Shown: piece after piece, positions 31,748 through 64,000 of the stretch
Layout: each line of letters opens with the position of its first letter
How positions within the stretch are numbered: the first letter of the stretch is position 1
From: Nostoc sp. DedSLP01
GTDB taxonomy: Bacteria; Cyanobacteriota; Cyanobacteriia; Cyanobacteriales; Nostocaceae
Assembly: GCA_034530875.2 (NCBI GenBank)
Contig: JAVRCJ020000012.1
Location: forward strand, 32,001-96,000
Direction of reading: 5' to 3'
Length of the DNA: 64,000 nt
Notes under the pieces: model-generated
What the model was told of the DNA's origin: nothing
Seen by the model: the letters and a program-made list of their open reading frames with translations, nothing else
Databases searched by the model: none
Made by a program: the position numbers and the translations under genes

Positions 31748-33010
31748 ATGCTCAATTCTGAAATTGACAAAGACCTGCGGCATAACTTTACTGTCAATAT
31801 TATTGAGAGTGGATTTTTTGGTTTAGGGAGTGGTTTTGCTTCATTTATCACGATAATTCCTCTATTTGTCAGCACTTTCACTACTTCTGCACTACTCATC
31901 GGTTTGATCCCAGCCATTCCCCGCTTAGGCTGCCAACTACCGCAACTATTAATAGCTGATAAAATAGCTTCTCTACAGTGTTACAAACCAACTTTAATGT
32001 TGTTGACAATTCATCAAAAACTTCCTTTTTTGGGATTAGCAGTAGTGGCTTTGTTACAGCTACATCTCAATAGCCAAACAACATTAGAGTTGACATTTGG
32101 CCTACTCATTTGGCAAGGTCTAGGCGGCGGATTTAGCGCCACTGCTTGGCAAAGTATGGTTGCTAAAATTGTTCCCTCCACAAGGCTTGGCATTTTTTAC
32201 GGTGCCATAGCAGCATCCTCTAATCTGATGAGTATTTTTGGTGCTGTGATTGCTGGTTTACTGCTTAAGGAAATCGCCCAACCATTTAACTTTGCTGTGT
32301 GTTTTTTGTGTGCCAGTTTTGCAATGGCTTTATCTTGGTTTTTTATGTCTAGAACGCGGGAACCAGCAAACAACCTATCACCTGTCATCGAATCTAGAAG
32401 TGAGTTTTGGCACAATCTGAGTTTAATTCTCCGACGGGATAAAAATTTCCGTAGTTTTGTGAATGCGCGTATGTTCTCACAGTTAGCAATGATGCCGCTT
32501 CCGTTCTATACACTCTATGCAGTACATCAATATGGGATGGGAGAAGCAGCTGTTGGATTAATTACTAGTTTATTGATGATGACGCAAACTATTGCTGGAT
32601 TAGTTTTAGGTTGGTTAGGCGATCGCATTGGTTACAAGTCCATCTTGGAAATTGGTTGTCTAGTCTCTGCGTTTAGTTCGTTACTAGCTTGTGTAGCACC
32701 AGATGCGTCCTGGTTTTACTTAGTGTTTATCGGAGCAGGGATAGGTACGATCGCTATGCAAAATATTGCTTCTGTAATGACTTTAGAGTTTGGGAACCAG
32801 CGCCAAAAACCGGCCTATATCGGTCTTGGTAATACTCTGGTTGCTCCTGCCACTATCGTTACTTCCCTACTAGGTGGCTGGATGGTGGAGAATTTTGACT
32901 ATAAAACTACCTTCTTGGTAGCAGCGATGGGTGGATTAATTACAGCACTGGTTTTGTATGTAGGAGTACGCGAACCACGCTATCTAGACCAGAATTTTAG
33001 CAATGATTAA
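31748..33010 (+). CDS. MFS transporter
   Basis: About 12 hydrophobic segments; motif GWLGDRIGYK. Confidence 0.88.
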   Translation: MLNSEIDKDLRHNFTVNIIESGFFGLGSGFASFITIIPLFVSTFTTSALLIGLIPAIPRLGCQLPQLLIADKIASLQCYKPTLMLLTIHQKLPFLGLAVVALLQLHLNSQTTLELTFGLLIWQGLGGGFSATAWQSMVAKIVPSTRLGIFYGAIAASSNLMSIFGAVIAGLLLKEIAQPFNFAVCFLCASFAMALSWFFMSRTREPANNLSPVIESRSEFWHNLSLILRRDKNFRSFVNARMFSQLAMMPLPFYTLYAVHQYGMGEAAVGLITSLLMMTQTIAGLVLGWLGDRIGYKSILEIGCLVSAFSSLLACVAPDASWFYLVFIGAGIGTIAMQNIASVMTLEFGNQRQKPAYIGLGNTLVAPATIVTSLLGGWMVENFDYKTTFLVAAMGGLITALVLYVGVREPRYLDQNFSND

Positions 33011-54360: not shown

Positions 54361-54502
54361 TCAGAACAAGAAAGCCGGGGATTCAGACCTGCGACAGATT
54401 GTTTTGCACCAAATCTATAATTGGGTGGGGGTCTTAAACCCAGTTATTCAGACGCTTGCGGACTCCAATTCATACTGAATTCTGACAACTGACTCCTGAA
54501 TT

Positions 54503-55939
54503 CTATCTTGATGATTTTGTATGTTGTTGAAAATAAGCTTGATAGAGTTGGCAACGCGGTACAATACGTTCGCCTTCAAACTTAATCAGTCCTAAACTTT
54601 CAAGCTGAGATACTGCAACAGGATCTAAAACAATATTTTCCTTATTTATCGCAATATCAGCATAAGCCCTAGCTAAATTCGGTTTTTTTTGTAGTTTTAT
54701 CCAGTGCTTCCATAAATGATCGCGATAAATTCCACCATTAGCAATTGCTTCTTTTATCAAGTCTTGGAGATTGATGGTTTCGCAGCAAATATGATACAGC
54801 GCAATCCGAATTAAAGCTGGATGGCCTCCCACAAGCGACATCAACGCGGCAGATTCTTTACCAGTACTCCAGTCTAATCCATGCCGCCTAGCCAATTCTT
54901 CTACCTGTTCTTGGGTAAATTCTGGCAACCGAACGGGTAAACCAATATTAAAAGGCGAACGATTGATGTCGAATGTTATGTAATTTTCAGTTGAGTAAAC
55001 CATTACTAATCGCAGCTTTTGCCAATTTTGATTTTGTCGTGCTTCCTCACACCAAGAACGCAATAAACCTAAAAAATCCTCAGCAATGTCAGGATATTCA
55101 AAAAAGCGATCTACTTCATTCAACACAATCACCACTGGAGTTTGACTGTGTTTGAGCAGATACTTTTGAAAGTAAAAACTGCAATTCAACTTAGAATCTA
55201 TTTGTTTATCCCATTGTCGATTGAGATTGGGAGCAAGACCTAATTGAGTTGCTACTTGCCAACAGAGAAAATACAAAAGTTCGTTTAAGTTAGCCAGACA
55301 ATTTTGTTCTATTTGATAGCAATTAATAGTTACTGTTTGGTAATTTTGTTGCTGTGCATAGGCTAGCATTCTTAATACTAGAGAACTCTTACCCATCTGT
55401 CTGGGTGATTGAATCTGAATCGCGCAGCCATTTTGAGTTATTTCATGATAAACAACTTTTTCCAGAGGTGGACGTTCGATATAAAGAGGAGAACCCAAAC
55501 TCACAGGGCCGTCTGGATATGAATCACAACATTTAACCTTGCAGGGCTGTTTCTTTGCTACATAACTTTTGGCTATTGAAGATAACGGAGATTTAGATTT
55601 TTGCTTATCTTCTAAAGTTTGCAGCCAGTTTTCTCTAGTTCGATCTTCATTTACTTCACTAGCAATGGTGTAATCTCCTGTAGATAATTCCAAACCAAAA
55701 GTGTTAAAGCATAGTCTCAGCGTTCGTTGATCTACAGTTGCATTCAAAGACCATAACCTACTCAAGGTTTTCGCAGATATATCCATACGGCTGCTTAATT
55801 CTTCCAAGGTAAAACGATTACCGTTGTTTTGAGTTATCTCTAGTATTTGAATTGCAGACTTTAAGCGTATTAGTCCAGCAGAGGTCAATAAAACTCCTCG
55901 TTTGCGTCTGCTTCTAAACTGTTCCATTTCACTAACCAT
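54503..55939 (-). CDS. HTH plus AAA-like (AAA_35-type) P-loop protein, probable regulator
   Basis: RRKRGVLLT...TLEELSSRMDISAKTLSR; YIERPP, SPRQMGKSS, SPFNIG, GGHPAL. Confidence 0.8.
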   Translation of the reverse strand: MVSEMEQFRSRRKRGVLLTSAGLIRLKSAIQILEITQNNGNRFTLEELSSRMDISAKTLSRLWSLNATVDQRTLRLCFNTFGLELSTGDYTIASEVNEDRTRENWLQTLEDKQKSKSPLSSIAKSYVAKKQPCKVKCCDSYPDGPVSLGSPLYIERPPLEKVVYHEITQNGCAIQIQSPRQMGKSSLVLRMLAYAQQQNYQTVTINCYQIEQNCLANLNELLYFLCWQVATQLGLAPNLNRQWDKQIDSKLNCSFYFQKYLLKHSQTPVVIVLNEVDRFFEYPDIAEDFLGLLRSWCEEARQNQNWQKLRLVMVYSTENYITFDINRSPFNIGLPVRLPEFTQEQVEELARRHGLDWSTGKESAALMSLVGGHPALIRIALYHICCETINLQDLIKEAIANGGIYRDHLWKHWIKLQKKPNLARAYADIAINKENIVLDPVAVSQLESLGLIKFEGERIVPRCQLYQAYFQQHTKSSR

Positions 55940-56487: not shown

Positions 56488-56904
56488 CTATTGCCTGTTC
56501 GCTGTTATAAATTGCTCTTCAGTCGGCAAACTCCATCCAAGAATACAAGCGATCGCTGAATGCAAGGTCACTGGATTAAAAGGCTTGGCAATTGCTTTCA
56601 CCACCCCAAGCTGCTGAAGTTTTTGTGACGTAAACCAACTCGCTTTCACACTCAACAAGATGACTGGGATAGCTTTGGTTAAAGGATTTTCTTGCAATCT
56701 ATGCAGAAATGTGGTAGAGTCCATACCTGGCATTAAAACATCAAGCAAAATAGCATCAGGAGGTTCTATGGCTAGCTGTTTTAGTCCAGCTTGAGCCGAG
56801 GGAACCGCCACAACTCTCCATCCGGCTAAATCGCTTAAACACGCTTGCACAAGTTCTCGAATAGTCGGTTCGTCATCAATTAGCAATATTGTTTTGACTG
56901 TCAT
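56488..56904 (-). CDS. Single-domain response regulator
   Basis: LLIDDE, ILLDVLMPGMD, IAKPF. Confidence 0.9.
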   Translation of the reverse strand: MTVKTILLIDDEPTIRELVQACLSDLAGWRVVAVPSAQAGLKQLAIEPPDAILLDVLMPGMDSTTFLHRLQENPLTKAIPVILLSVKASWFTSQKLQQLGVVKAIAKPFNPVTLHSAIACILGWSLPTEEQFITANRQ

Positions 56905-57248
56905 AATTAAAACGAGTTTTCCAAAAGGGAACGGGGAACAGGGAACATTGGGAATACAACTTGATTCTCAAAAAAACTAGCGGTTTTACAAGAGAATTTC
57001 CACTTTGTTCTGTGCTGTAAATTCAGCTTAGATCGAGAAAATAAGAAACTTATAGGGTGTTTGAGAGGCTATTCTCAAGGCAAAACTTGCTACAGACCGT
57101 GCCAAACCTGGGTCGCAACAGCAAATGGTTAAGGCTACGATGTACACACAAGTCGAATTTCTCTTGAAAAAACTTGTGTGTATCCCGTAGCCCTGCCTAC
57201 ACAGCAATGGAATTATTAAGCCTATCAAGCGATCGCGAACTAAAAAAT

Positions 57249-58097
57249 CTAACCAAGGGTCATCAAAAATTTGCGGACAGATTGCTCAAACTCAGTAGGA
57301 GTTTCAAGGTGAGGAGAATGTCCTGCATTAAATGTTTCAACTTGAGCATTTGGAAATTTGTTAATTGCAGGTAAGCACCGCCGGAGTTGAACAAAGGGAT
57401 CGCGTAATGCCCAAGTAAAAAGTACGGGACACGAAATACTCGAAATCAGTTCTCTCAGGTCTGAGGTTGGTTCGGCAAAACTTTGCCATGCCTGAACTAA
57501 ATAAGGTGCCATTTCCCAAGAAGATGCTAATATTTTCTTTCTTTGACTGCGAGCAGCTTGCTTGGGAAGTATCACTCGATAAAAATCAGCAATAGCTTTA
57601 GGATACCACCAAGCTTTTGCCATTCCTCCTGAAAAAATTCGTACCATTAATTTGATAAATACTTGTGCCGAACTATCCATTGGATCGAGTCCACCAGGAT
57701 TTGCTAAAATTAGACCCAGCACGCGTTCCGGGTGGATATAAGCATATTTGATTGCCGTAGCTCCACCAATAGAATTTCCAATAATAACTACTTTATCTAA
57801 CCTCAATTTATCTAGGAATAGTGCCAGTAATTCAGAATATCTACTTGCACTAACAGGTTGCATATCATTGTCTGAATTCCCATGACCCGGAAAATCAATA
57901 GCAATAACTCGGTATTGGTTGCAAAGGTTTTCTCTTAAATACAAATAGTCACTTGCTCCATGTCCAATTGCATGAAGGCAAATGATAGGTAAGCCGATAC
58001 CATCATCATTATAAGCTAGATTTATTCCGTCTACTTCAAGCGTTTTCCACGGTTCAGTTGCCCCTAATGCTGCCCTTAGTCGAGTGTTATTTCCCAT
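57249..58097 (-). CDS. Alpha/beta hydrolase, last gene of the biosynthetic operon
   Basis: HAIGHG, DFPGHG, GNSIGG, GHSPHLE. Confidence 0.88.
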   Translation of the reverse strand: MGNNTRLRAALGATEPWKTLEVDGINLAYNDDGIGLPIICLHAIGHGASDYLYLRENLCNQYRVIAIDFPGHGNSDNDMQPVSASRYSELLALFLDKLRLDKVVIIGNSIGGATAIKYAYIHPERVLGLILANPGGLDPMDSSAQVFIKLMVRIFSGGMAKAWWYPKAIADFYRVILPKQAARSQRKKILASSWEMAPYLVQAWQSFAEPTSDLRELISSISCPVLFTWALRDPFVQLRRCLPAINKFPNAQVETFNAGHSPHLETPTEFEQSVRKFLMTLG

Positions 58098-58121
58098 TGG
58101 CTTATACAAATTATTTTAGTA

Positions 58122-59282
58122 CTAGAAAATATCAGCAGGATCGGCTTCTTGTAACTTTTGTACTGCGAAGGCTCCGGCGATAAAGCACATTAAAATTGTC
58201 AGACACAAGACGAATACAGCACGAACAAATTCCATTTCTGTTGGCAGCCGGACAATGCGAACAACTAAATCATACAATAATACAGAAAAAGCAAATCCTG
58301 GAATATAACCTAAAACTGATAAAAATAATGATTCTTGAAAAACTACTTTTAAAAGATATTTATGACTATAACCAATAGCTTTCAGAGTTGCATACTCAGC
58401 TAAATGGTCGGAGACTTCACTATAGAGAACTTGATAGACAATAACTGAACCCACAATGAATCCCATTACTGTCCCTATAGTGAATATAGAACCAATGGGT
58501 GAACCTTGTCGCCAGTAATCTTTTTCCCGAGTCATATAACTCTCAAGGGTGAGTATTTTTACACCATTGGGAAGCTTAGCTGTTAAATTTTTAAGTACTT
58601 TTTGAATATTAGCATTAGGCTTGAGTTTAACTAAACCTACGCTCACCTTTTCCAAGGGTCTTTGAAGTAAACGTGAAAAATTCAAATCGCTAGTTATTAA
58701 AATTCCATCAGCAGAAAAAATCGAACCTCCTAAGCTGAATAAACCGCCAATTTTGATTTTGCGATCGTTTACTTCAGTTGCGATATTTTTTCCTTGTTTA
58801 AATTCGGTAGCAATGGGGCCAAAAACAGGCTTAGATAATCGGTCAAAAAGAACTACATCATCATATTTAAGTTTATTTAGATTCTGATTAACTTCAGGCA
58901 AATTAAAACATGGTTTTTCCGGATTACAGCCAAAAATTAATATTTGACGATTGCGCGGCTCTACAGGATTTTTCCAGTGGCCAAAACCCACATATAGAGG
59001 ATATGCTGTTTCTATACCATCAACCTCTAAACTTTTAGTTAAGTAACGCTTGGTAAAAGTCCGATACAATCCTACATCATATAAATTTTCAGCTCTGGGG
59101 TCGATCAAAATCAAGTCTGCACGCATATTCTGGTGTATATCTACAGCAGTTTTATATAAAGCGCCTTGGAAACCTAATTGCATAAACATTAAAAGGGTAG
59201 CAAAAGCAATTCCAGCCAAAGCTACTATAAACCGAGCCTTATTATGCGTTAATTGTAACCAGGATACGGGTACTTTTTGCAT
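58122..59282 (-). CDS. DevC-type ABC exporter permease
   Basis: SWLQL...FMQLGF, YQVLYSEV...EYATLKAIGY, ADPADIF. Confidence 0.9.
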   Translation of the reverse strand: MQKVPVSWLQLTHNKARFIVALAGIAFATLLMFMQLGFQGALYKTAVDIHQNMRADLILIDPRAENLYDVGLYRTFTKRYLTKSLEVDGIETAYPLYVGFGHWKNPVEPRNRQILIFGCNPEKPCFNLPEVNQNLNKLKYDDVVLFDRLSKPVFGPIATEFKQGKNIATEVNDRKIKIGGLFSLGGSIFSADGILITSDLNFSRLLQRPLEKVSVGLVKLKPNANIQKVLKNLTAKLPNGVKILTLESYMTREKDYWRQGSPIGSIFTIGTVMGFIVGSVIVYQVLYSEVSDHLAEYATLKAIGYSHKYLLKVVFQESLFLSVLGYIPGFAFSVLLYDLVVRIVRLPTEMEFVRAVFVLCLTILMCFIAGAFAVQKLQEADPADIF

Positions 59283-59388
59283 AATGAATTTGTATTTACC
59301 CATGAGAGCCAAATTTCATGTATTAACGACTTTGACGCTTGAAAAATTTTGATTCTTCCAATTAAGCTAGAAGAAATTTACGAAGAAA

Positions 59389-60618
59389 TTAAATATGAAT
59401 TGCTACATTCACTTTCAAGTTGGTTAAGCTTCTTACTTGTTGGCTACTCGCGGAGTCCAGCCTGATTTTGACTTCTACTACTCTAGCGTCTACAGCCACC
59501 ACTGGATCGTCGTTCAAAACATCTTTTTTACCAATTTGCCAACCAATTTGGTCTACATGACCTTGTAGTTTGTTGGTAAAAGTTTCACTAGTAATTACAG
59601 CTTTTTGACCGTTATTTATCTTAGTAATATCACTTTCATAAACTTCTGCGACTACATACATCTGGTCTGTTTGACCGATATCGGCAATTCCTTGGGTATC
59701 AATATTTTCTCCAGCGTGAGTATAGATTTTTAAAATTCGCCCAGCTATTGGCGATCGCACATAAGCTAGCTTGAGGTCGGCTTGAGCTTGTTTTACAGAG
59801 GCGATCGCACTTTCTAAGTCTGCTTGAGCCTCGTTGATATTTACCGGACGAATTTCAGCAATACGATTTAAAGTTGCTCTTGCTTCATTAATCTGTTCTT
59901 GGAGAGTTTTGACAGTACCATTAAAAGTAGCTTGTGCCTCATTTATCTGCTCTTGAATAGTTTCCATTGTCAAACGTTTACTATCTAAAAGCGAAATGGC
60001 GATCGCACCATCTTTATAGAGCTTCTCATAACGCGAATACTCTATTTGAGCGTTACTTAATTGAGTTGAAAGTTTAGCAATATTTGCTTTTTGAGCAATG
60101 CTTTCCTCGCTTAACTGTGCCTTTAATCGAGCAATCACCGCTTGTTGAGCAGATATTTCTCCTACTTGAGCGCCAGCTTTAACTTTGTCAAGACGCGCTT
60201 GAGCAACTTTGACTTGTGTTTGAGCCTTTTCTAAAGCAGCTTGACGAGTATCAAGGATATCCAGAATTGCAACTACCTGTCCGGGCCGAACTTGCTCTCC
60301 TTCCTTAACAAGTAGCTTCGCAATTCGCTTTTGCGTCTCTAGCATGGTTGGTGAAGACAGCTTAATAACTTCTCCTAGCGGTTCTAAGCGTCCATCCGCA
60401 GCAACAATATTGTCAGTAGAATTACCTCCTGGAGTGGCGGCGATGTCTGCATTATTCTGCTGAATAGCATGAGAACGAAAATACACAATAGCGTACACAG
60501 AAGCTCCACCAAAAGCTAAAGCTGTCACAATTGCCAAAATAATGACTCTCCAACTTTGGAGACCTGCATTCTTTAAAAACTGCTGATTGGTATTAGACGC
60601 TGGATAATCTTCTTGCAT
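59389..60618 (-). CDS. DevB-type membrane fusion protein (HlyD family)
   Basis: N-terminal TM, GRLEPLGEV, coiled coils, VVAEVYESDI, DARVVEVKI. Confidence 0.9.
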   Translation of the reverse strand: MQEDYPASNTNQQFLKNAGLQSWRVIILAIVTALAFGGASVYAIVYFRSHAIQQNNADIAATPGGNSTDNIVAADGRLEPLGEVIKLSSPTMLETQKRIAKLLVKEGEQVRPGQVVAILDILDTRQAALEKAQTQVKVAQARLDKVKAGAQVGEISAQQAVIARLKAQLSEESIAQKANIAKLSTQLSNAQIEYSRYEKLYKDGAIAISLLDSKRLTMETIQEQINEAQATFNGTVKTLQEQINEARATLNRIAEIRPVNINEAQADLESAIASVKQAQADLKLAYVRSPIAGRILKIYTHAGENIDTQGIADIGQTDQMYVVAEVYESDITKINNGQKAVITSETFTNKLQGHVDQIGWQIGKKDVLNDDPVVAVDARVVEVKIRLDSASSQQVRSLTNLKVNVAIHI

Positions 60619-60625
60619 AAAAAGT

Positions 60626-60859
60626 TTAATTTTTAACGCGATTTACAAATAACTGAGTCAAGTCTCCTACAGTTTTAATATCTTGCAAATCTTCTTGTAA
60701 AAAACATACACGATACTCTTCTTGCAGTTCAATAATCATTTCAATTAAAACGAAAGATTCAGCAATAACATCGGTTAGTAAAGCTTCATCTTGCAGTTTA
60801 GAAATGGGTATTTTAGTAAAATCGGATATTTTTTCTTTTACAGTACTTTGAACTAACAT
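60626..60859 (-). CDS. Acyl/peptidyl carrier protein 2
   Basis: 77 aa, acidic, AESFVLIEMIIELQEE (candidate Ppant Ser), IKTVGDL; GAAGGAG RBS. Confidence 0.8.
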   Translation of the reverse strand: MLVQSTVKEKISDFTKIPISKLQDEALLTDVIAESFVLIEMIIELQEEYRVCFLQEDLQDIKTVGDLTQLFVNRVKN

Positions 60860-61012
60860 AGTATTTTCTCCTTCGTCATTTTTTGTTACTGTACTTCTAC
60901 ACCAAAAACAAGCAAATATTTTTAATAAAGCATAGAATTAATGGTTCCTTTGAATCCCCCACTAATTAATTCTGACTTCTGAATTCTGAATTCTGAGTTC
61001 TTCTTCAATGAT

Positions 61013-61573
61013 TTATCTTTTGATTAGATATTTGACTCTTTCCTCATGTTCGTTCATAGTTTGACGATAAACTTCTCGATCCGACTCTCCAAAACGTTTG
61101 AGAGTTGCTTGAATGTAATCTCTACCATAATCAGATTCCATATCCTTAAGAGCTTTTCCAACCCAAGTAGTATGCCACTTTTCATCTTTCATGATTTTCT
61201 CAAGAGTCTCTTTCACTTCTGGCTGAAGATTGAGAATCTGACTGTGAAGAGCATATTGCGTAATAACCCGTTTTTCAAAGACTTGAGTGATTGCTAGAAC
61301 CTCCATCAAATTCACAGGCATACCAGCTGCTGCTATATATTGATCTTGATAAGCATCAGTAAGTTTGAGCGCTTGAGCACCTAATTTTTCAATACATGCT
61401 GTCCAGTACCAAGCATGAAGACTTTCATCAGAAAAATGATTAGTCATATCACGCTGGATAGGGCCTGGTTTCATTGATTTGGCCAATCTGCCGAAAAAAA
61501 GTGCCCCACTGATTTCAGAAGTACGATAAAAGCTTAGAAGCCACAATTCATTTTCACTAAGTTTCTCAGACAT
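61013..61573 (-). CDS. Ferritin-like diiron protein
   Basis: E(ISG)...DESLH...E(KRV)...DEKWH carboxylate/His pattern; AGGAG RBS. Confidence 0.8.
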   Translation of the reverse strand: MSEKLSENELWLLSFYRTSEISGALFFGRLAKSMKPGPIQRDMTNHFSDESLHAWYWTACIEKLGAQALKLTDAYQDQYIAAAGMPVNLMEVLAITQVFEKRVITQYALHSQILNLQPEVKETLEKIMKDEKWHTTWVGKALKDMESDYGRDYIQATLKRFGESDREVYRQTMNEHEERVKYLIKR

Positions 61574-61615
61574 GAGAATACTCCTAACTTTTGGGTTAAT
61601 TCAATTTATCAAGAT

Positions 61616-61776
61616 AGAATTCAGGAGTCAGGAGTCAGAATTCAGTATGAATTAGAGTCCGACTGGCGTCTGAATAATTGGGTTTAAGACCCAACAAAAT
61701 CGTAGATTTGGTAGTCTTGAATTAGTCGCGGTTCAGAATCACTAACTGATTGATTCTGACTCCTGAATTCTGAATT
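61616..61776. repeat. STRR-ended dispersed repeat, an inverted homologue of about 54361-54503
   Basis: Shared CAGAATTCAGTATGAATT.GAGTCCG...GCGTCTGAATAA.TGGGTTTAAGACCC...TAGATTTGGT. Confidence 0.75.
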
Positions 61777-61795
61777 ATTTTTCAATAAAAACACT

Positions 61796-62890
61796 TTATA
61801 CTTGTTTAGCCCATTTTTGTTTCAAAAGGTATTGGCAAGTATTTTCAATTAAAGTTTGGGGATTTTCAGCTTGATAGTTATCAAAAGCTGAAACTAGTTT
61901 TTGATTATTGATTTCTTTGTCAATGAACAGTTGCTTAGAAAAAGGAGATACACTAGAAACTGCTTCATTAACAATATTTCCGCCAAAGCCTTTTACAGCA
62001 TCTACAAGAAAATTAAAAGATTCTGGATCGGCATAAAGTGGCTTCAGAACTCGCCGCACTTTAAATTCTGGCGTTTGAGTAAAAGTTGTAAATGCAATAT
62101 CTATGATATCGCCCAAGCATGGTGATTCTGCTTTTGTATGGGCAATATGATAAATTTCTTGATTGCAAGAGCGACTCATCAACTTGAAAATTGCATCAGT
62201 GACAAAATCTCCTGTGACGAAATATAGTGGCGTTTCTGGTTTACCTGGAATTAAAGAAAGCAGACCATAATAAAGTAGCTTTAATGTATTATGGAAAGCA
62301 TTTTGTTGAGTCACATATCCTTGTATGTTATCCGCAATGACTGTTGCTACTCGAAATATGCTCCAAGGAAGATGAGAAAATTGGTTAATTAGTAAATTTT
62401 CAGATTCCCATTTTGACCACTCATAATAATTGGCAAAGCCATCTCGGTCGTCTAATGCAATTTCTGCAATTAAACCTGATTTTATCCCAGATGCATAAAC
62501 CGTACTTAATAAGCCAAATCCTTCTAAAGAGTGGCAGGTATTAGCAAAATTGAGCAGCTTTTCTGTTCCCTCAATATTAACTTGCCGAGCAGTTTCTCGG
62601 TCGACATTAAAGCGAGTTACTGAGGCAGAATGAACGATTAGTTTAATTTCTCCTGGGTCAATTAAATTAAATGGTTGTGCTTGTCTTAAATCACCCCAGG
62701 AATAGCTAACGCGTTCAGAGTAATTGTCTAGATAAAGATTGAGTTTTTCTACCTTGTTTTGAAACTCATGTTCGTCATTTGCCCTTACCCAAAGTAGTAT
62801 AGGTTCCTGTGTTACTTGCAAATATTTTCTGGCTATGCGAGAACCAATATAGCCATCGCCACCTGTAATTAAAATTTGTTTTTTAGACAT
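61796..62890 (-). CDS. Extended SDR of the thioester reductase / fatty acyl reductase (NAD_binding_4) type
   Basis: TGGDGYIG, HSAS, NIEGT, STVY, YEWSKWESE. Confidence 0.85.
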   Translation of the reverse strand: MSKKQILITGGDGYIGSRIARKYLQVTQEPILLWVRANDEHEFQNKVEKLNLYLDNYSERVSYSWGDLRQAQPFNLIDPGEIKLIVHSASVTRFNVDRETARQVNIEGTEKLLNFANTCHSLEGFGLLSTVYASGIKSGLIAEIALDDRDGFANYYEWSKWESENLLINQFSHLPWSIFRVATVIADNIQGYVTQQNAFHNTLKLLYYGLLSLIPGKPETPLYFVTGDFVTDAIFKLMSRSCNQEIYHIAHTKAESPCLGDIIDIAFTTFTQTPEFKVRRVLKPLYADPESFNFLVDAVKGFGGNIVNEAVSSVSPFSKQLFIDKEINNQKLVSAFDNYQAENPQTLIENTCQYLLKQKWAKQV

Positions 62891-63773
62891 TTGCTACCTT
62901 CTCTAACTGTAAATGCGGCCAATTAGTTTCATCAGTTCCAAATTGTGTTAAAAAAGCAAATATCCATCGTTCGATTCCGAAGGCTACACAGCCAGAGAAA
63001 GCATCTTGACCGTCTCGCTGAATTTGAAATGTTTCTCCAAAATAATTTCGATGGAAATTGACTGAGCCAATAGCCAGACTATTTTGAAATACCATTTCTG
63101 TTTTTACTGGTGCTAGCTTTTGCGCTAAATATTTAGGATTTTGCAAAGGATTAAAAAATGGATCTGTTGCTTCATCCCAGTCAATTGGCAGGTTAATTGT
63201 AGTAAATAAATGTTCTAATTTTTGTCGATAGTTATCCAAAAATACTTTCACTTCATCTGCTGTGCCAATACATACAATTTCTCGCATAGAAAAATTCCAT
63301 TGGCGTTCGAGGGGTCGATAATATGACTCTCGTCGAAAACAATTTCCTCTAGTTGTCAAGTACTTTGGTCTATTGAGATTCTGTCCTTGAAATTGAATGT
63401 AAAAGTGATAGCAGGCTGCTGGTGTGAGAACATCCCGAATTGGCCCTGGTGCTGTCAATTGGACTTCTCCGGCTGCTGAAATAGGTTGTCCCTCAGCAAA
63501 AGTCTTTAAATTCTTTTCCTCTGGATTTAGGAAAACTGGAAATGTGACTAAATGAGGAAAAGAACGAAAATATTCTAGGCGTTCTAGTTCGCGTGCAGAA
63601 ATAAAAGTTGGAAACAGATGTTCTTGAGCAGTACATTCTCTAGCCAAGCTGATAAAAAACTGGTCGAGTTTGTGATAAAGCTTGAGCAAATTACCGCTAA
63701 ATGCTGATTGACCATTGGGAAACCAACGATAATCTGCTAGGTTTTCAAAGTTAATTTTAGTGTTATTTTCCAT
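62883..63773 (-). CDS. Seryl-tRNA-synthetase-like amino acid:carrier protein ligase (class II catalytic core only)
   Basis: YFRSFPH, PAACYHFY, motif 2 CFRRE...FSMREIVCIG, SVNFHRNYFG, motif 3 SGCVAFGIERW; 296 aa with no tRNA-binding domain. Confidence 0.85.
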   Translation of the reverse strand: MENNTKINFENLADYRWFPNGQSAFSGNLLKLYHKLDQFFISLARECTAQEHLFPTFISARELERLEYFRSFPHLVTFPVFLNPEEKNLKTFAEGQPISAAGEVQLTAPGPIRDVLTPAACYHFYIQFQGQNLNRPKYLTTRGNCFRRESYYRPLERQWNFSMREIVCIGTADEVKVFLDNYRQKLEHLFTTINLPIDWDEATDPFFNPLQNPKYLAQKLAPVKTEMVFQNSLAIGSVNFHRNYFGETFQIQRDGQDAFSGCVAFGIERWIFAFLTQFGTDETNWPHLQLEKVANV

Positions 63774-64000
63774 TGGTTACCTCTTGAAAAAAATTGTGGT
63801 GTATGGCGTTAATATCTCGAAAAACCTTGTGTTTGATATTAGAGAAGTTAATGGGGCGATCGCTTAATTGTTCGATAAACAAAAGTAGTTCCATTACTTG
63901 CAGTGAAGAAATAATTCTACGTTCAATAATGGGTGTATCATCCTTGAGTTCATCGCTTTGAATCTTGCCATTTGTATTCACTATCCATTCATGCAATGCC
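63763..64000 (-). CDS. Carrier protein 1, 5'-truncated by the window end
   Basis: Frame open to the edge (...ALHEWIV); DDTPIIERRIISSLQVMELLLFIE resembles the Ppant-Ser helix; stop overlaps the ligase start. Confidence 0.72.
   Translation of the reverse strand, partial: ALHEWIVNTNGKIQSDELKDDTPIIERRIISSLQVMELLLFIEQLSDRPINFSNIKHKVFRDINAIHHNFFQEVTNGK

Follow-up and report, generated by a model that had tools for sequence, protein, structure and literature searches.

The window examined here is the whole stretch of 64,000 nucleotides (nt) from positions 32,001 to 96,000 of contig JAVRCJ020000012.1 of the cyanobacterium Nostoc sp. DedSLP01 (assembly GCA_034530875.2; the genome is called G000 below). 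Between 57249 and 64000 it carries part of an operon that appears to encode a biosynthetic pathway based on carrier proteins. A preliminary description of this region, drawn from the sequence alone, listed eight co-oriented genes of the minus strand in the order carrier protein, seryl-tRNA synthetase (SerRS)-like catalytic core, reductase, ferritin-like protein, second carrier protein, DevB, DevC and alpha/beta hydrolase. All eight open reading frames (ORFs) were found there, and Pfam and NCBIfam scans agree with the domain assignments. Two overlaps, of 11 nt between the carrier and the SerRS-like ligase and of 8 nt between the ligase and the reductase, follow from the ORF coordinates as had been described. 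The operon had been expected to run beyond 64000, and the retrieved upstream sequence bears this out. The first carrier protein, CP1, has its true start (MKTELEIK...) 26 nt past the window end, at position 1026 of a stretch (L002) that reaches past it. Six further genes follow on the same strand within the next 7.7 kb, with gaps of 2-30 nt and of 228 nt before the outermost one. The features are listed below from the upstream end; adding 63000 to an L002 position gives the extrapolated window position.

L002 7161-7655, minus strand: ACP0, an acyl carrier protein (ACP); ORF of 164 amino acids (aa), ACP domain at residues 91-163
L002 5136-6932, minus strand: fatty-acid--AMP ligase (FAAL), 598 aa
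L002 3417-5105, minus strand: acyl-CoA-ligase-like AMP-binding enzyme (AMP-ligase), 562 aa
L002 2840-3412, minus strand: ICMT-like methyltransferase, 190 aa
L002 1887-2837, minus strand: KAS III-like enzyme, 316 aa
L002 1023-1883, minus strand: AurF-like diiron oxygenase (predicted), 286 aa
63763 to the window end (64000), minus strand: CP1, first carrier, 87 aa when whole, start past the window end
62883-63773, minus strand: homologue of the ligases that load amino acids on carrier proteins (aa:CP ligases), SerRS-like, 296 aa
61796-62890, minus strand: stand-alone thioester-reductase-type short-chain dehydrogenase/reductase (SDR), 364 aa
61600-61776, no strand assigned: dispersed repeat with inverted ends, resembling a miniature inverted-repeat transposable element, recognised from its sequence and from comparison with the Stigonema copy L003
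61013-61573, minus strand: ferritin-like diiron oxygenase (predicted), 186 aa
60626-60859, minus strand: ACP2, second carrier, 77 aa
59389-60618, minus strand: DevB-family membrane fusion protein, 409 aa
58122-59312, minus strand: DevC ABC-exporter permease, 396 aa
57249-58109, minus strand: alpha/beta hydrolase, 286 aa, last operon gene in G000

The result is a unit of 14 co-oriented genes with small gaps or overlaps and with three carrier proteins. A clear AGGAG lies 8 nt ahead of the start codon of the ferritin-like gene. No nonribosomal peptide synthetase (NRPS) or polyketide synthase (PKS) module had been seen in the window, and the same holds for the entire operon, in which domain scans detected no condensation, ketosynthase-acyltransferase or NRPS adenylation modules. 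A scan for promoters and terminators returned 16 promoter-like sites (21.8 in shuffled sequences) and 5 terminator-like ones (5.7 in shuffled sequences); none of the counts rises above the shuffles and the scan is therefore uninformative on transcription units.

The SerRS-like protein, of which G000 has a single gene, matches PF00587 at 2.7e-7, above the Pfam cut-off. Among solved structures it matches Bll0957 (PDB 3mey) at 7.3e-33 and the Atu2573-type structure 4h2w at 2.3e-30; two structures of SerRS, 2cim and 3w3s, follow with about 1e-10. The alignment covers only residues 324-507 of 2cim, a methanogen-type SerRS, and only positions 214-506 of the 518-position SerRS model. Judged from these alignments, the protein is a class II SerRS-type catalytic core devoid of the N-terminal tRNA-binding domain. 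It had been proposed to be a homologue of the Bll0957-type aa:CP ligases, and the match to 3mey, together with a carrier gene of its own adjoining it, supports this assignment. NCBI records use the name 'aminoacyl--tRNA ligase-related protein'. Against NF005479 ('amino acid--[acyl-carrier-protein] ligase') it reaches 141.4 bits (3e-41), short of the equivalog cut-off of 357. The residues aligned to the CYP/RRE/GCV motifs of Bll0957 are invariant; C121, E149 and C262 are so in 16 sequences. The latter three are identical in the aligned Bll0957 and are putative zinc ligands. The aa:CP ligases are zinc-dependent enzymes (PMC9437257, excerpts). Relatives are numerous (1447 at an E-value of 1e-10 or better among 2132 candidates), and the non-cyanobacterial ones reach up to 60-69% identity.

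CP1 has no Pfam or NCBIfam match. Its ATG overlaps the stop codon of the AurF-like gene (ATGA), and Ser31, in the motif 'RIISSLQ', is invariant in 22 sequences (CP1 and 21 orthologues). CP1 is predicted to be the dedicated carrier of the ligase, with Ser31 as the putative phosphopantetheine-bearing serine. At three loci (L032, L039, L054) the AurF-like, CP1 and ligase genes occur without the remaining core described below, which argues that these three form a functional unit.

Other settings of such ligases were also encountered. On two contigs of metagenome-assembled genomes (MAGs) from Alphaproteobacteria/Rhizobium (L056, L058), a ligase with 48% identity is accompanied by a carrier, a phosphopantetheinyl transferase (PPTase) and two unrelated proteins of large size, with about 923 and 606 aa; tblastn and ORF clustering found none of the other core genes on them. 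This context may represent the classical Bll0957-type neighbourhood. Further neighbourhoods of SerRS paralogues, with ACP, Rossmann-fold enzyme, glycosidase and liposaccharide genes, have been described (Aravind 2010, PMC2922099, excerpts).

The AurF-like protein matches PF11583 at 7.1e-37 (127.5 bits for a cut-off of 29.6), and seven putative metal ligands (E79, E109, H112, E157, H183, E187, H190) are invariant in 28 sequences. The diiron enzymes termed FDOs share six ligands, and a seventh histidine, four residues before the last glutamate, marks the N-oxygenases among them (PMC12154687, excerpts). H183 sits four residues before the last glutamate and fits this signature. The predicted structure (pLDDT 94.8) was matched by Foldseek to the N-oxygenases CmlI (1.5e-4) and AurF (4.3e-4), with TM scores of about 0.6, and then to R2lox. 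In a protein atlas, an acyl-ACP desaturase cluster stands among its weaker neighbours (score 0.93).

The second diiron protein is of another kind. The ferritin-like protein matches Rubrerythrin at 1.2e-5. Its E20, E50, H53, E100, E131 and H134 do not vary among 30 sequences and make up a full E, ExxH, E, ExxH site. The fold neighbours of its model (pLDDT 92) are weak, all of them weaker than an E-value of 1e-3: PaaA, an unknown Arthrobacter protein, ADO (about 1e-2), MiaE and bacterioferritins. A sequence search of solved structures with both diiron proteins gave nothing significant, and the atlas returned only generic names for the two queries ('diiron oxygenase' and 'hypothetical protein'). 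Among 1.84 billion representatives, a profile search with the ferritin-like protein picked up only 342 at an E-value of at most 0.001, 183 at 1e-10 and 48 at 1e-30. By sequence it belongs to a small family without a named relative and is a predicted diiron oxygenase. Complex prediction with ACP2, run on our own alignments, gave a score of 0.57, rated as 'weak support' (best of three controls, 0.01), and the runs agreed on at least 95% of the contacts, with a partner pLDDT of at least 88. Of 157 solved complexes 116 attained the mark used, as did 2 of 215 mismatches, and passing scores of 0.60 or below were those of only 18 of the 157 solved complexes and of both passing mismatches; little weight is given to this result.

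The KAS III-like enzyme (ACP_syn_III_C, 1.2e-13) was aligned to FabH (2ebd). Its Cys128, Gln241, His272 and Asp277 are invariant in 22 sequences. The cysteine is thus kept, while Gln241 stands at the position of the FabH histidine and His272 at that of the asparagine, and the Cys-His-Asn triad is not present. Lacking the FabH His-Asn pair, the protein is unlikely to be a decarboxylative condensing enzyme; its triad presumably resembles that of the CerJ/DpsC acyltransferase type. The methyltransferase matches NF040696 at 3.9e-15 (56 bits for a cut-off of 160) and has two strongly hydrophobic windows. Its C-terminal motif (RHPFY...EE..L..FG.eY..Y...GRF.P), presumably of the ICMT type, is conserved in 95% or more of 38 sequences. 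The reductase matches NAD_binding_4 at 4.6e-32 and, under the cut-off, TIGR01746 at 1.1e-21; of 37 sequences, at least 95% retain the SDR motifs TGxxGYxG and Y155-x3-K159.

The preliminary description had considered the product to be possibly lipidated, and this part gains from the acyl-activating genes found beyond the window and from two more ACPs in the operon. The acyl-CoA-ligase-like enzyme matches AMP-binding at 2.1e-83. The FAAL does so at 3.2e-64 and matches fatty-acid--AMP ligase models at about 1e-126, under their cut-offs. ACP0 scores 81 bits for TIGR00517, above the cut-off of 70.45; its ACP models match only residues 91-163 of the 164-aa ORF and the ORF of the Stigonema orthologue has 138 aa; the true start is probably internal. 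ACP2 matches PP-binding at 6.7e-4 (20.3 bits, just under the cut-off of 20.8) and NCBIfam ACP models at 1.2e-7 and weaker, and its Ser35 is invariant in 22 sequences.

A pattern scan with two peptide patterns of the ligase, over one genome per prokaryotic species, identified 65 loci. They belong to Acidobacteriota, Nitrospirota, Bdellovibrionota, Melainabacteria, Pseudomonadota, Myxococcota, Planctomycetota, Omnitrophota, Chloroflexota and others; the lone cyanobacterium among them is a Stigonema MAG (L003, 91% identical). The 14 proteins of the operon were compared with these loci by tblastn (E-value of 1e-5 or better). Matches were found for the AurF-like protein in 61 of the 65, for CP1 and the reductase in 59 each, for the KAS III-like enzyme in 56, for the AMP-ligase and the ferritin-like protein in 55 each and for the methyltransferase and ACP2 in 52 each. 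Several of the misses are explained by contig ends that cut the loci. In most loci the order is AMP-ligase, methyltransferase, KAS III-like, AurF-like, CP1, ligase, reductase, ferritin-like, ACP2. The preliminary description had proposed conserved synteny in other genomes as a check, and this nine-gene core indeed recurs in the same order across most of the loci. It is a cassette common to many phyla and no cyanobacterial speciality. The ferritin-like protein is its most conserved member (44-96% identity in 55 of the 65 loci; 56-76% in most, 44-48% in a gammaproteobacterial group). Acyl activation varies: the acyl-CoA-ligase type (at least 33% identity) is found in 40 of the 65 loci and a FAAL orthologue (at least 36% identity) instead in 13, usually downstream of ACP2, and only L003 resembles G000 in having both. 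The other four operon members are rarely matched: DevB in five loci (close only in L003, 25-28% identity elsewhere), DevC and the hydrolase in two each, and ACP0 in L003 only.

Accessory genes were sought by clustering the ORFs of the loci, and one or two members of each family were then scanned with Pfam. In 21 loci, a PPTase gene of family F8 stands between the genes for the reductase and the ferritin-like protein; a second PPTase family (F12) occurs in nine. PPTase genes inside the core fit a carrier-dependent pathway; G000 itself has a single PPTase gene, on another contig. Exporters of lipid type are exchanged from lineage to lineage. DevBC accompanies the three cyanobacterial copies; in Bdellovibrionota, an ABC ATPase, two FtsX permeases and a LolA-like protein (LolCDE/LolA-like) lie downstream of the core, the LolA-like family being present in nine loci; and an MMPL transporter is found in six gammaproteobacterial/Woeseiaceae loci. 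Three unrelated lipid-type exporters on one core argue for an exported, lipophilic product.

Some lineages carry additions of their own. In Obscuribacterales (L042, L047, L049, L051), a tetratricopeptide-repeat protein of about 322 aa is encoded between the ligase and the reductase, and a second one, of about 490 aa, on the opposite strand after ACP2. In Blastocatellia (L007, L008, L010, L016), a gene for a MarR-family regulator lies directly upstream of the core, joined in three of the four by a gene for a pyridoxal phosphate (PLP)-dependent enzyme of Cys/Met metabolism.

Cyanobacterial copies are rare. The ferritin-like protein was found in five of 401 genomes sampled from the phylum, G000 included, in none of eight genomes of the same genus and in one of 45 of the same family. 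The latter (G390) belongs to a different genus and its core proteins are only 36-59% identical to those of G000, yet its layout is core, DevB, DevC, hydrolase, ABC ATPase and FAAL. This shared layout, despite such divergence, indicates that the tie between exporter, hydrolase and core is conserved among the cyanobacterial copies. A tree was computed from five concatenated core proteins (51 rows, 1400 columns, LG+G4, quick search), with 17 of 67 loci left out, at least one of the five proteins being missing in them at 80% coverage. G000, L003 and G390 form one clade (SH-aLRT 99), nested in a clade of 13 rows (SH-aLRT 95) together with copies from Nitrospirota, Blastocatellia and Myxococcota. 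Melainabacteria and Pseudomonadota are each scattered over several parts of the tree, a pattern that points to horizontal spread.

The export part of the earlier proposal also finds support. DevB scores 371 bits for TIGR02971 (cut-off 129) and DevC 461 bits for TIGR01185 (cut-off 290), and both are kept beside the core in the two other cyanobacterial copies examined (DevB 87% identical in L003 and 39% in G390, DevC 89% and 66%). The hydrolase (Abhydrolase_1, 1.4e-24) is 90% identical in L003 and 60% in G390. In both of these copies a gene for an ABC ATPase (DevA-like) follows the hydrolase. In G000, homology to L003 breaks off just past the hydrolase, at 57211, and devA is replaced there by a response-regulator gene that stands alone (56488-56904); the seven best DevA-like genes of the genome, with 59-71% identity to that of L003, are all on other contigs. 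The operon of G000 is further marked by the repeat at 61600-61776. This element of 177 nt, which has 51 matches in the genome and another copy at about 54408-54512 of the window, lies in the spacer between the reductase and the ferritin-like genes; at this spot the window has 178 nt and L003, from which the repeat is absent, has 10 nt. Inside the operon, the repeat could affect transcription of the downstream genes.

Taken together, these data suggest a pathway. Gene content, gene order, the conservation of catalytic residues and the exporter associations are what was observed; each chemical step proposed from here on is our inference. On balance it seems probable, by a modest degree, that the operon specifies a carrier-protein pathway independent of NRPS and PKS, which builds and exports a lipid with an N-oxygenated head group derived from an amino acid. 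The amino-acid-derived, possibly lipidated and exported small molecule of the preliminary description agrees in each of its parts with the gene content and is a prediction as to function. By homology, the aa:CP ligase would adenylate a small amino acid and load it on phosphopantetheinylated CP1. Glycine is the likeliest candidate, a guess made from the precedent of Bll0957. The AurF-like enzyme would then oxidise the tethered amino group to the level of a hydroxylamine, nitroso, nitro or nitronate group. Oxidation on the carrier is suggested by the N-oxygenase ligand signature and by the AurF-like, CP1 and ligase genes travelling together. In parallel, the FAAL, the acyl-CoA-ligase-like enzyme or both would load a fatty acid on ACP2 (also on ACP0 in cyanobacteria). 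The ferritin-like oxygenase may modify a carrier-bound intermediate, and the KAS III-like enzyme would couple the acyl chain, with no decarboxylation, to the unit on CP1, through a C-C, C-N or C-O bond. By analogy, the ICMT-like membrane methyltransferase would O-methylate an acidic oxygen, that of a nitronate or of a carboxylate. The reductase would release the thioester as an aldehyde or alcohol, and the product would be moved out by DevBC, with an ATPase encoded elsewhere in G000, or in each other lineage by its own exporter. A more specific version is put forward tentatively and as less likely than not: that the core is a widespread route, independent of NRPS and of PLP, to an exported envelope lipid of a class not described before, whose head group is an N-oxygenated (nitro, nitronate or oxime) C2 unit from carrier-bound glycine.

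The closest system described so far is that of the enteromycin class, in which nitronates are derived from glycine. A diiron oxygenase oxidises the glycine while it is bound to a carrier, and O-methylation or denitrification of the nitronate follows; examples are enteromycin carboxamide, akazaoxime/A-76356 and the althiomycin oxime (PMC9967187, PMC11035981, PMC12154687, excerpts). In the excerpted accounts, these pathways share with the present operon a carrier-tethered amino acid (predicted for the operon), a diiron oxygenase of the AurF family, an O-methyltransferase gene in the cluster (here that of the putative, ICMT-like one) and a unit of AurF-type enzyme, carrier and loader. What the operon has beyond them are genes to activate fatty acids, a second ACP, a KAS III-like enzyme for the joining step, another diiron protein, a reductase that stands alone, and lipid exporters.

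Several points weigh against an N-oxygenated lipid as the product, or against its production in G000. In akazaoxime biosynthesis, glycine is loaded by an NRPS adenylation-peptidyl carrier protein unit and the pathway continues on NRPS/PKS modules (PMC9967187, excerpts), whereas here the loader is a SerRS-derived aa:CP ligase and there is no hand-over to such modules. With 141 bits for an equivalog cut-off of 357, this ligase represents a divergent subfamily. The seventh-histidine rule is a correlation, with which hydroxylase, desaturase or halogenase chemistry is still compatible. The score of the methyltransferase for PF04140 (ICMT), 23 bits, is just under the cut-off of 24. The 65 loci, found through two ligase motifs, are a lower bound and are biased towards conserved ligases. 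Comparison with L003 revealed no devA and no remnant of one at the G000 locus or in the window, and the missing devA together with the repeat inserted inside the operon suggests that the copy of G000 might be impaired.

The alternative that survives best keeps the carriers and the exporters and dispenses with N-oxidation. The product would be an amino aldehyde or amino alcohol acylated at N or at C, perhaps a base of sphingoid type whose formation needs no PLP: aminoacyl-CP1 would receive its acyl group from the KAS III-like enzyme, at the nitrogen or at the glycyl alpha-carbon, the reductase would yield the aldehyde or alcohol, and both diiron proteins would be hydroxylases or desaturases of the acyl chain. 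It is common for soluble diiron proteins to desaturate or hydroxylate acyl chains held on carriers, and the acyl-ACP desaturase cluster near the AurF-like protein in the atlas agrees with such a role. PaaA, ADO and MiaE, which the ferritin-like protein resembles, oxidise carbon and not nitrogen; lipid exporters would suit a membrane aminolipid, and the altered KAS III triad fits a non-decarboxylative acyl transfer. However, the AurF-like protein has the seventh histidine typical of N-oxygenases and finds its best structural matches in two of them, it travels with CP1 and the ligase even where acyl-activating genes are lacking (L032, L039, L054), and no obvious role would be left for an O-methyltransferase of the ICMT type. 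An un-oxidised product is accordingly held to be rather unlikely.

A small diffusible signal or antibiotic has also to be weighed. In the Pvf/Ham systems, PvfB is an AurF-like N-oxygenase and PvfC an adenylation-thiolation-reductase protein that tethers an amino acid. In its combination of adenylation, a carrier, a reductase and an AurF-like N-oxygenase the operon follows the logic of PvfB and PvfC, and the core could make a signal or antibiotic of this type (an N-oxide, a diazeniumdiolate or a reductively released oxime) with the exporters acting in general efflux. The distribution in the phylum and the genus is patchy, and the horizontal spread indicated by the tree is typical of specialised metabolites. 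Here, in contrast with Pvf/Ham, the functions reside in separate proteins, the loader is of the aminoacyl-tRNA synthetase type, and fatty-acid modules and exporters are added. A fatty-acid-activating enzyme and a second ACP belong to the conserved core, the LolA-like and MMPL partners point to lipid handling, and protein identities of 50-75% across phyla are high for a fast-evolving specialised-metabolite cluster. A signal or antibiotic of this kind thus appears distinctly unlikely.

Finally, a chance neighbourhood or two unrelated units (the core; devBC with the hydrolase) would agree with the single locus (L003) of the 65 in which DevB, DevC and the hydrolase are closely related and with the silence of the promoter and terminator scan, but it is highly improbable given the same succession of genes in G390 and the tiny gaps of 7 nt from ACP2 to DevB and of 12 nt from DevC to the hydrolase.

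The reading of the operon as a route to an exported, N-oxygenated lipid can also be set beside other known systems. With the Bll0957/Atu2573 ligases (3mey, 4h2w), the ligase shares the fold, the catalytic core, the lack of a tRNA-binding domain and an adjoining dedicated carrier gene; it differs from them in its score, far below the equivalog cut-off, and in a gene context unlike that of L056 and L058, which are loci of the Rhizobium type. DevB and DevC score above the cut-offs of the DevBCA exporter families, but no devA is present and the cargo would be the product of the cassette rather than a heterocyst glycolipid.

The nocuolin A (noc) cluster of cyanobacteria was considered and rejected, as its size, orientation and PKS/NRPS content differ (PMC5333925, PMC9486936, excerpts). 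It has in common with the operon a FAAL with an ACP, a non-decarboxylative ketosynthase and diiron proteins distantly related to AurF (PMC5333925, PMC9486936, excerpts). Nevertheless, noc (nocA-T) spans 37.7-41.6 kb, is transcribed both ways and includes PKS and NRPS genes, an aminotransferase and dioxygenases, and no seryl-tRNA-synthetase-like gene is named in the excerpted text of the noc paper (PMC5333925). Two other routes were likewise set aside. For the alkane pathway of AAR/ADO type, ADO is only one of several weak fold neighbours of the ferritin-like protein, and the cassette has an amino-acid module. OleABCD-type logic (thiolase, AMP-ligase, SDR, hydrolase) accommodates neither the carriers nor the ligase. 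The preliminary description did not recognise the gene combination as a characterised pathway. This view stands, since noc does not fit and a full-text literature search found no description of the gene set, which subscription papers or supplements may hold. The cassette is conserved, and the pathway variant that it represents is apparently undescribed.

A few features around the operon complete the picture of the locus. About 2 kb upstream of the first operon gene (L002 7656-9654) contain no ORF of at least 70 aa on either strand, and Rfam gave no match there; beyond lies a gene, pointing away, for an RTX-repeat/bluetail-domain protein (L002 9655-10305). On the other side, between two receiver-domain genes, the minus strand at 54503-55939 encodes a 478-aa AAA_35 protein (PF14516, 5.9e-141, full-length) that also shows a faint match, far under the cut-off, to the anti-phage model NF053860 (E-value 0.0025).

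The interest of the cassette lies first in the ligases themselves. Structures of aa:CP ligases have been solved, and a 2022 review stated that their biological role is unknown (PMC9437257, excerpts); a cassette whose order is kept across phyla offers a concrete and testable pathway for them. It also defines a small, tightly conserved family of ferritin-like oxygenases without a named relative. The taxa that carry it include predatory Bdellovibrionota, Melainabacteria, Acidobacteriota, Nitrospirota and a few cyanobacteria. One of them, Bdellovibrio sp. HCB337 (L031), is apparently a cultured isolate whose genome is complete; genetics would then be feasible. If the product is indeed such an envelope lipid with an N-oxygenated head group, the cassette would provide the first physiological role for aa:CP ligases, orphan enzymes since 2010, and a new small family of diiron oxygenases acting on a carrier-bound intermediate. 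On-carrier N-oxygenation of amino acids, so far a matter of antibiotic assembly lines, would be extended to what appears to be lipid and envelope biochemistry.

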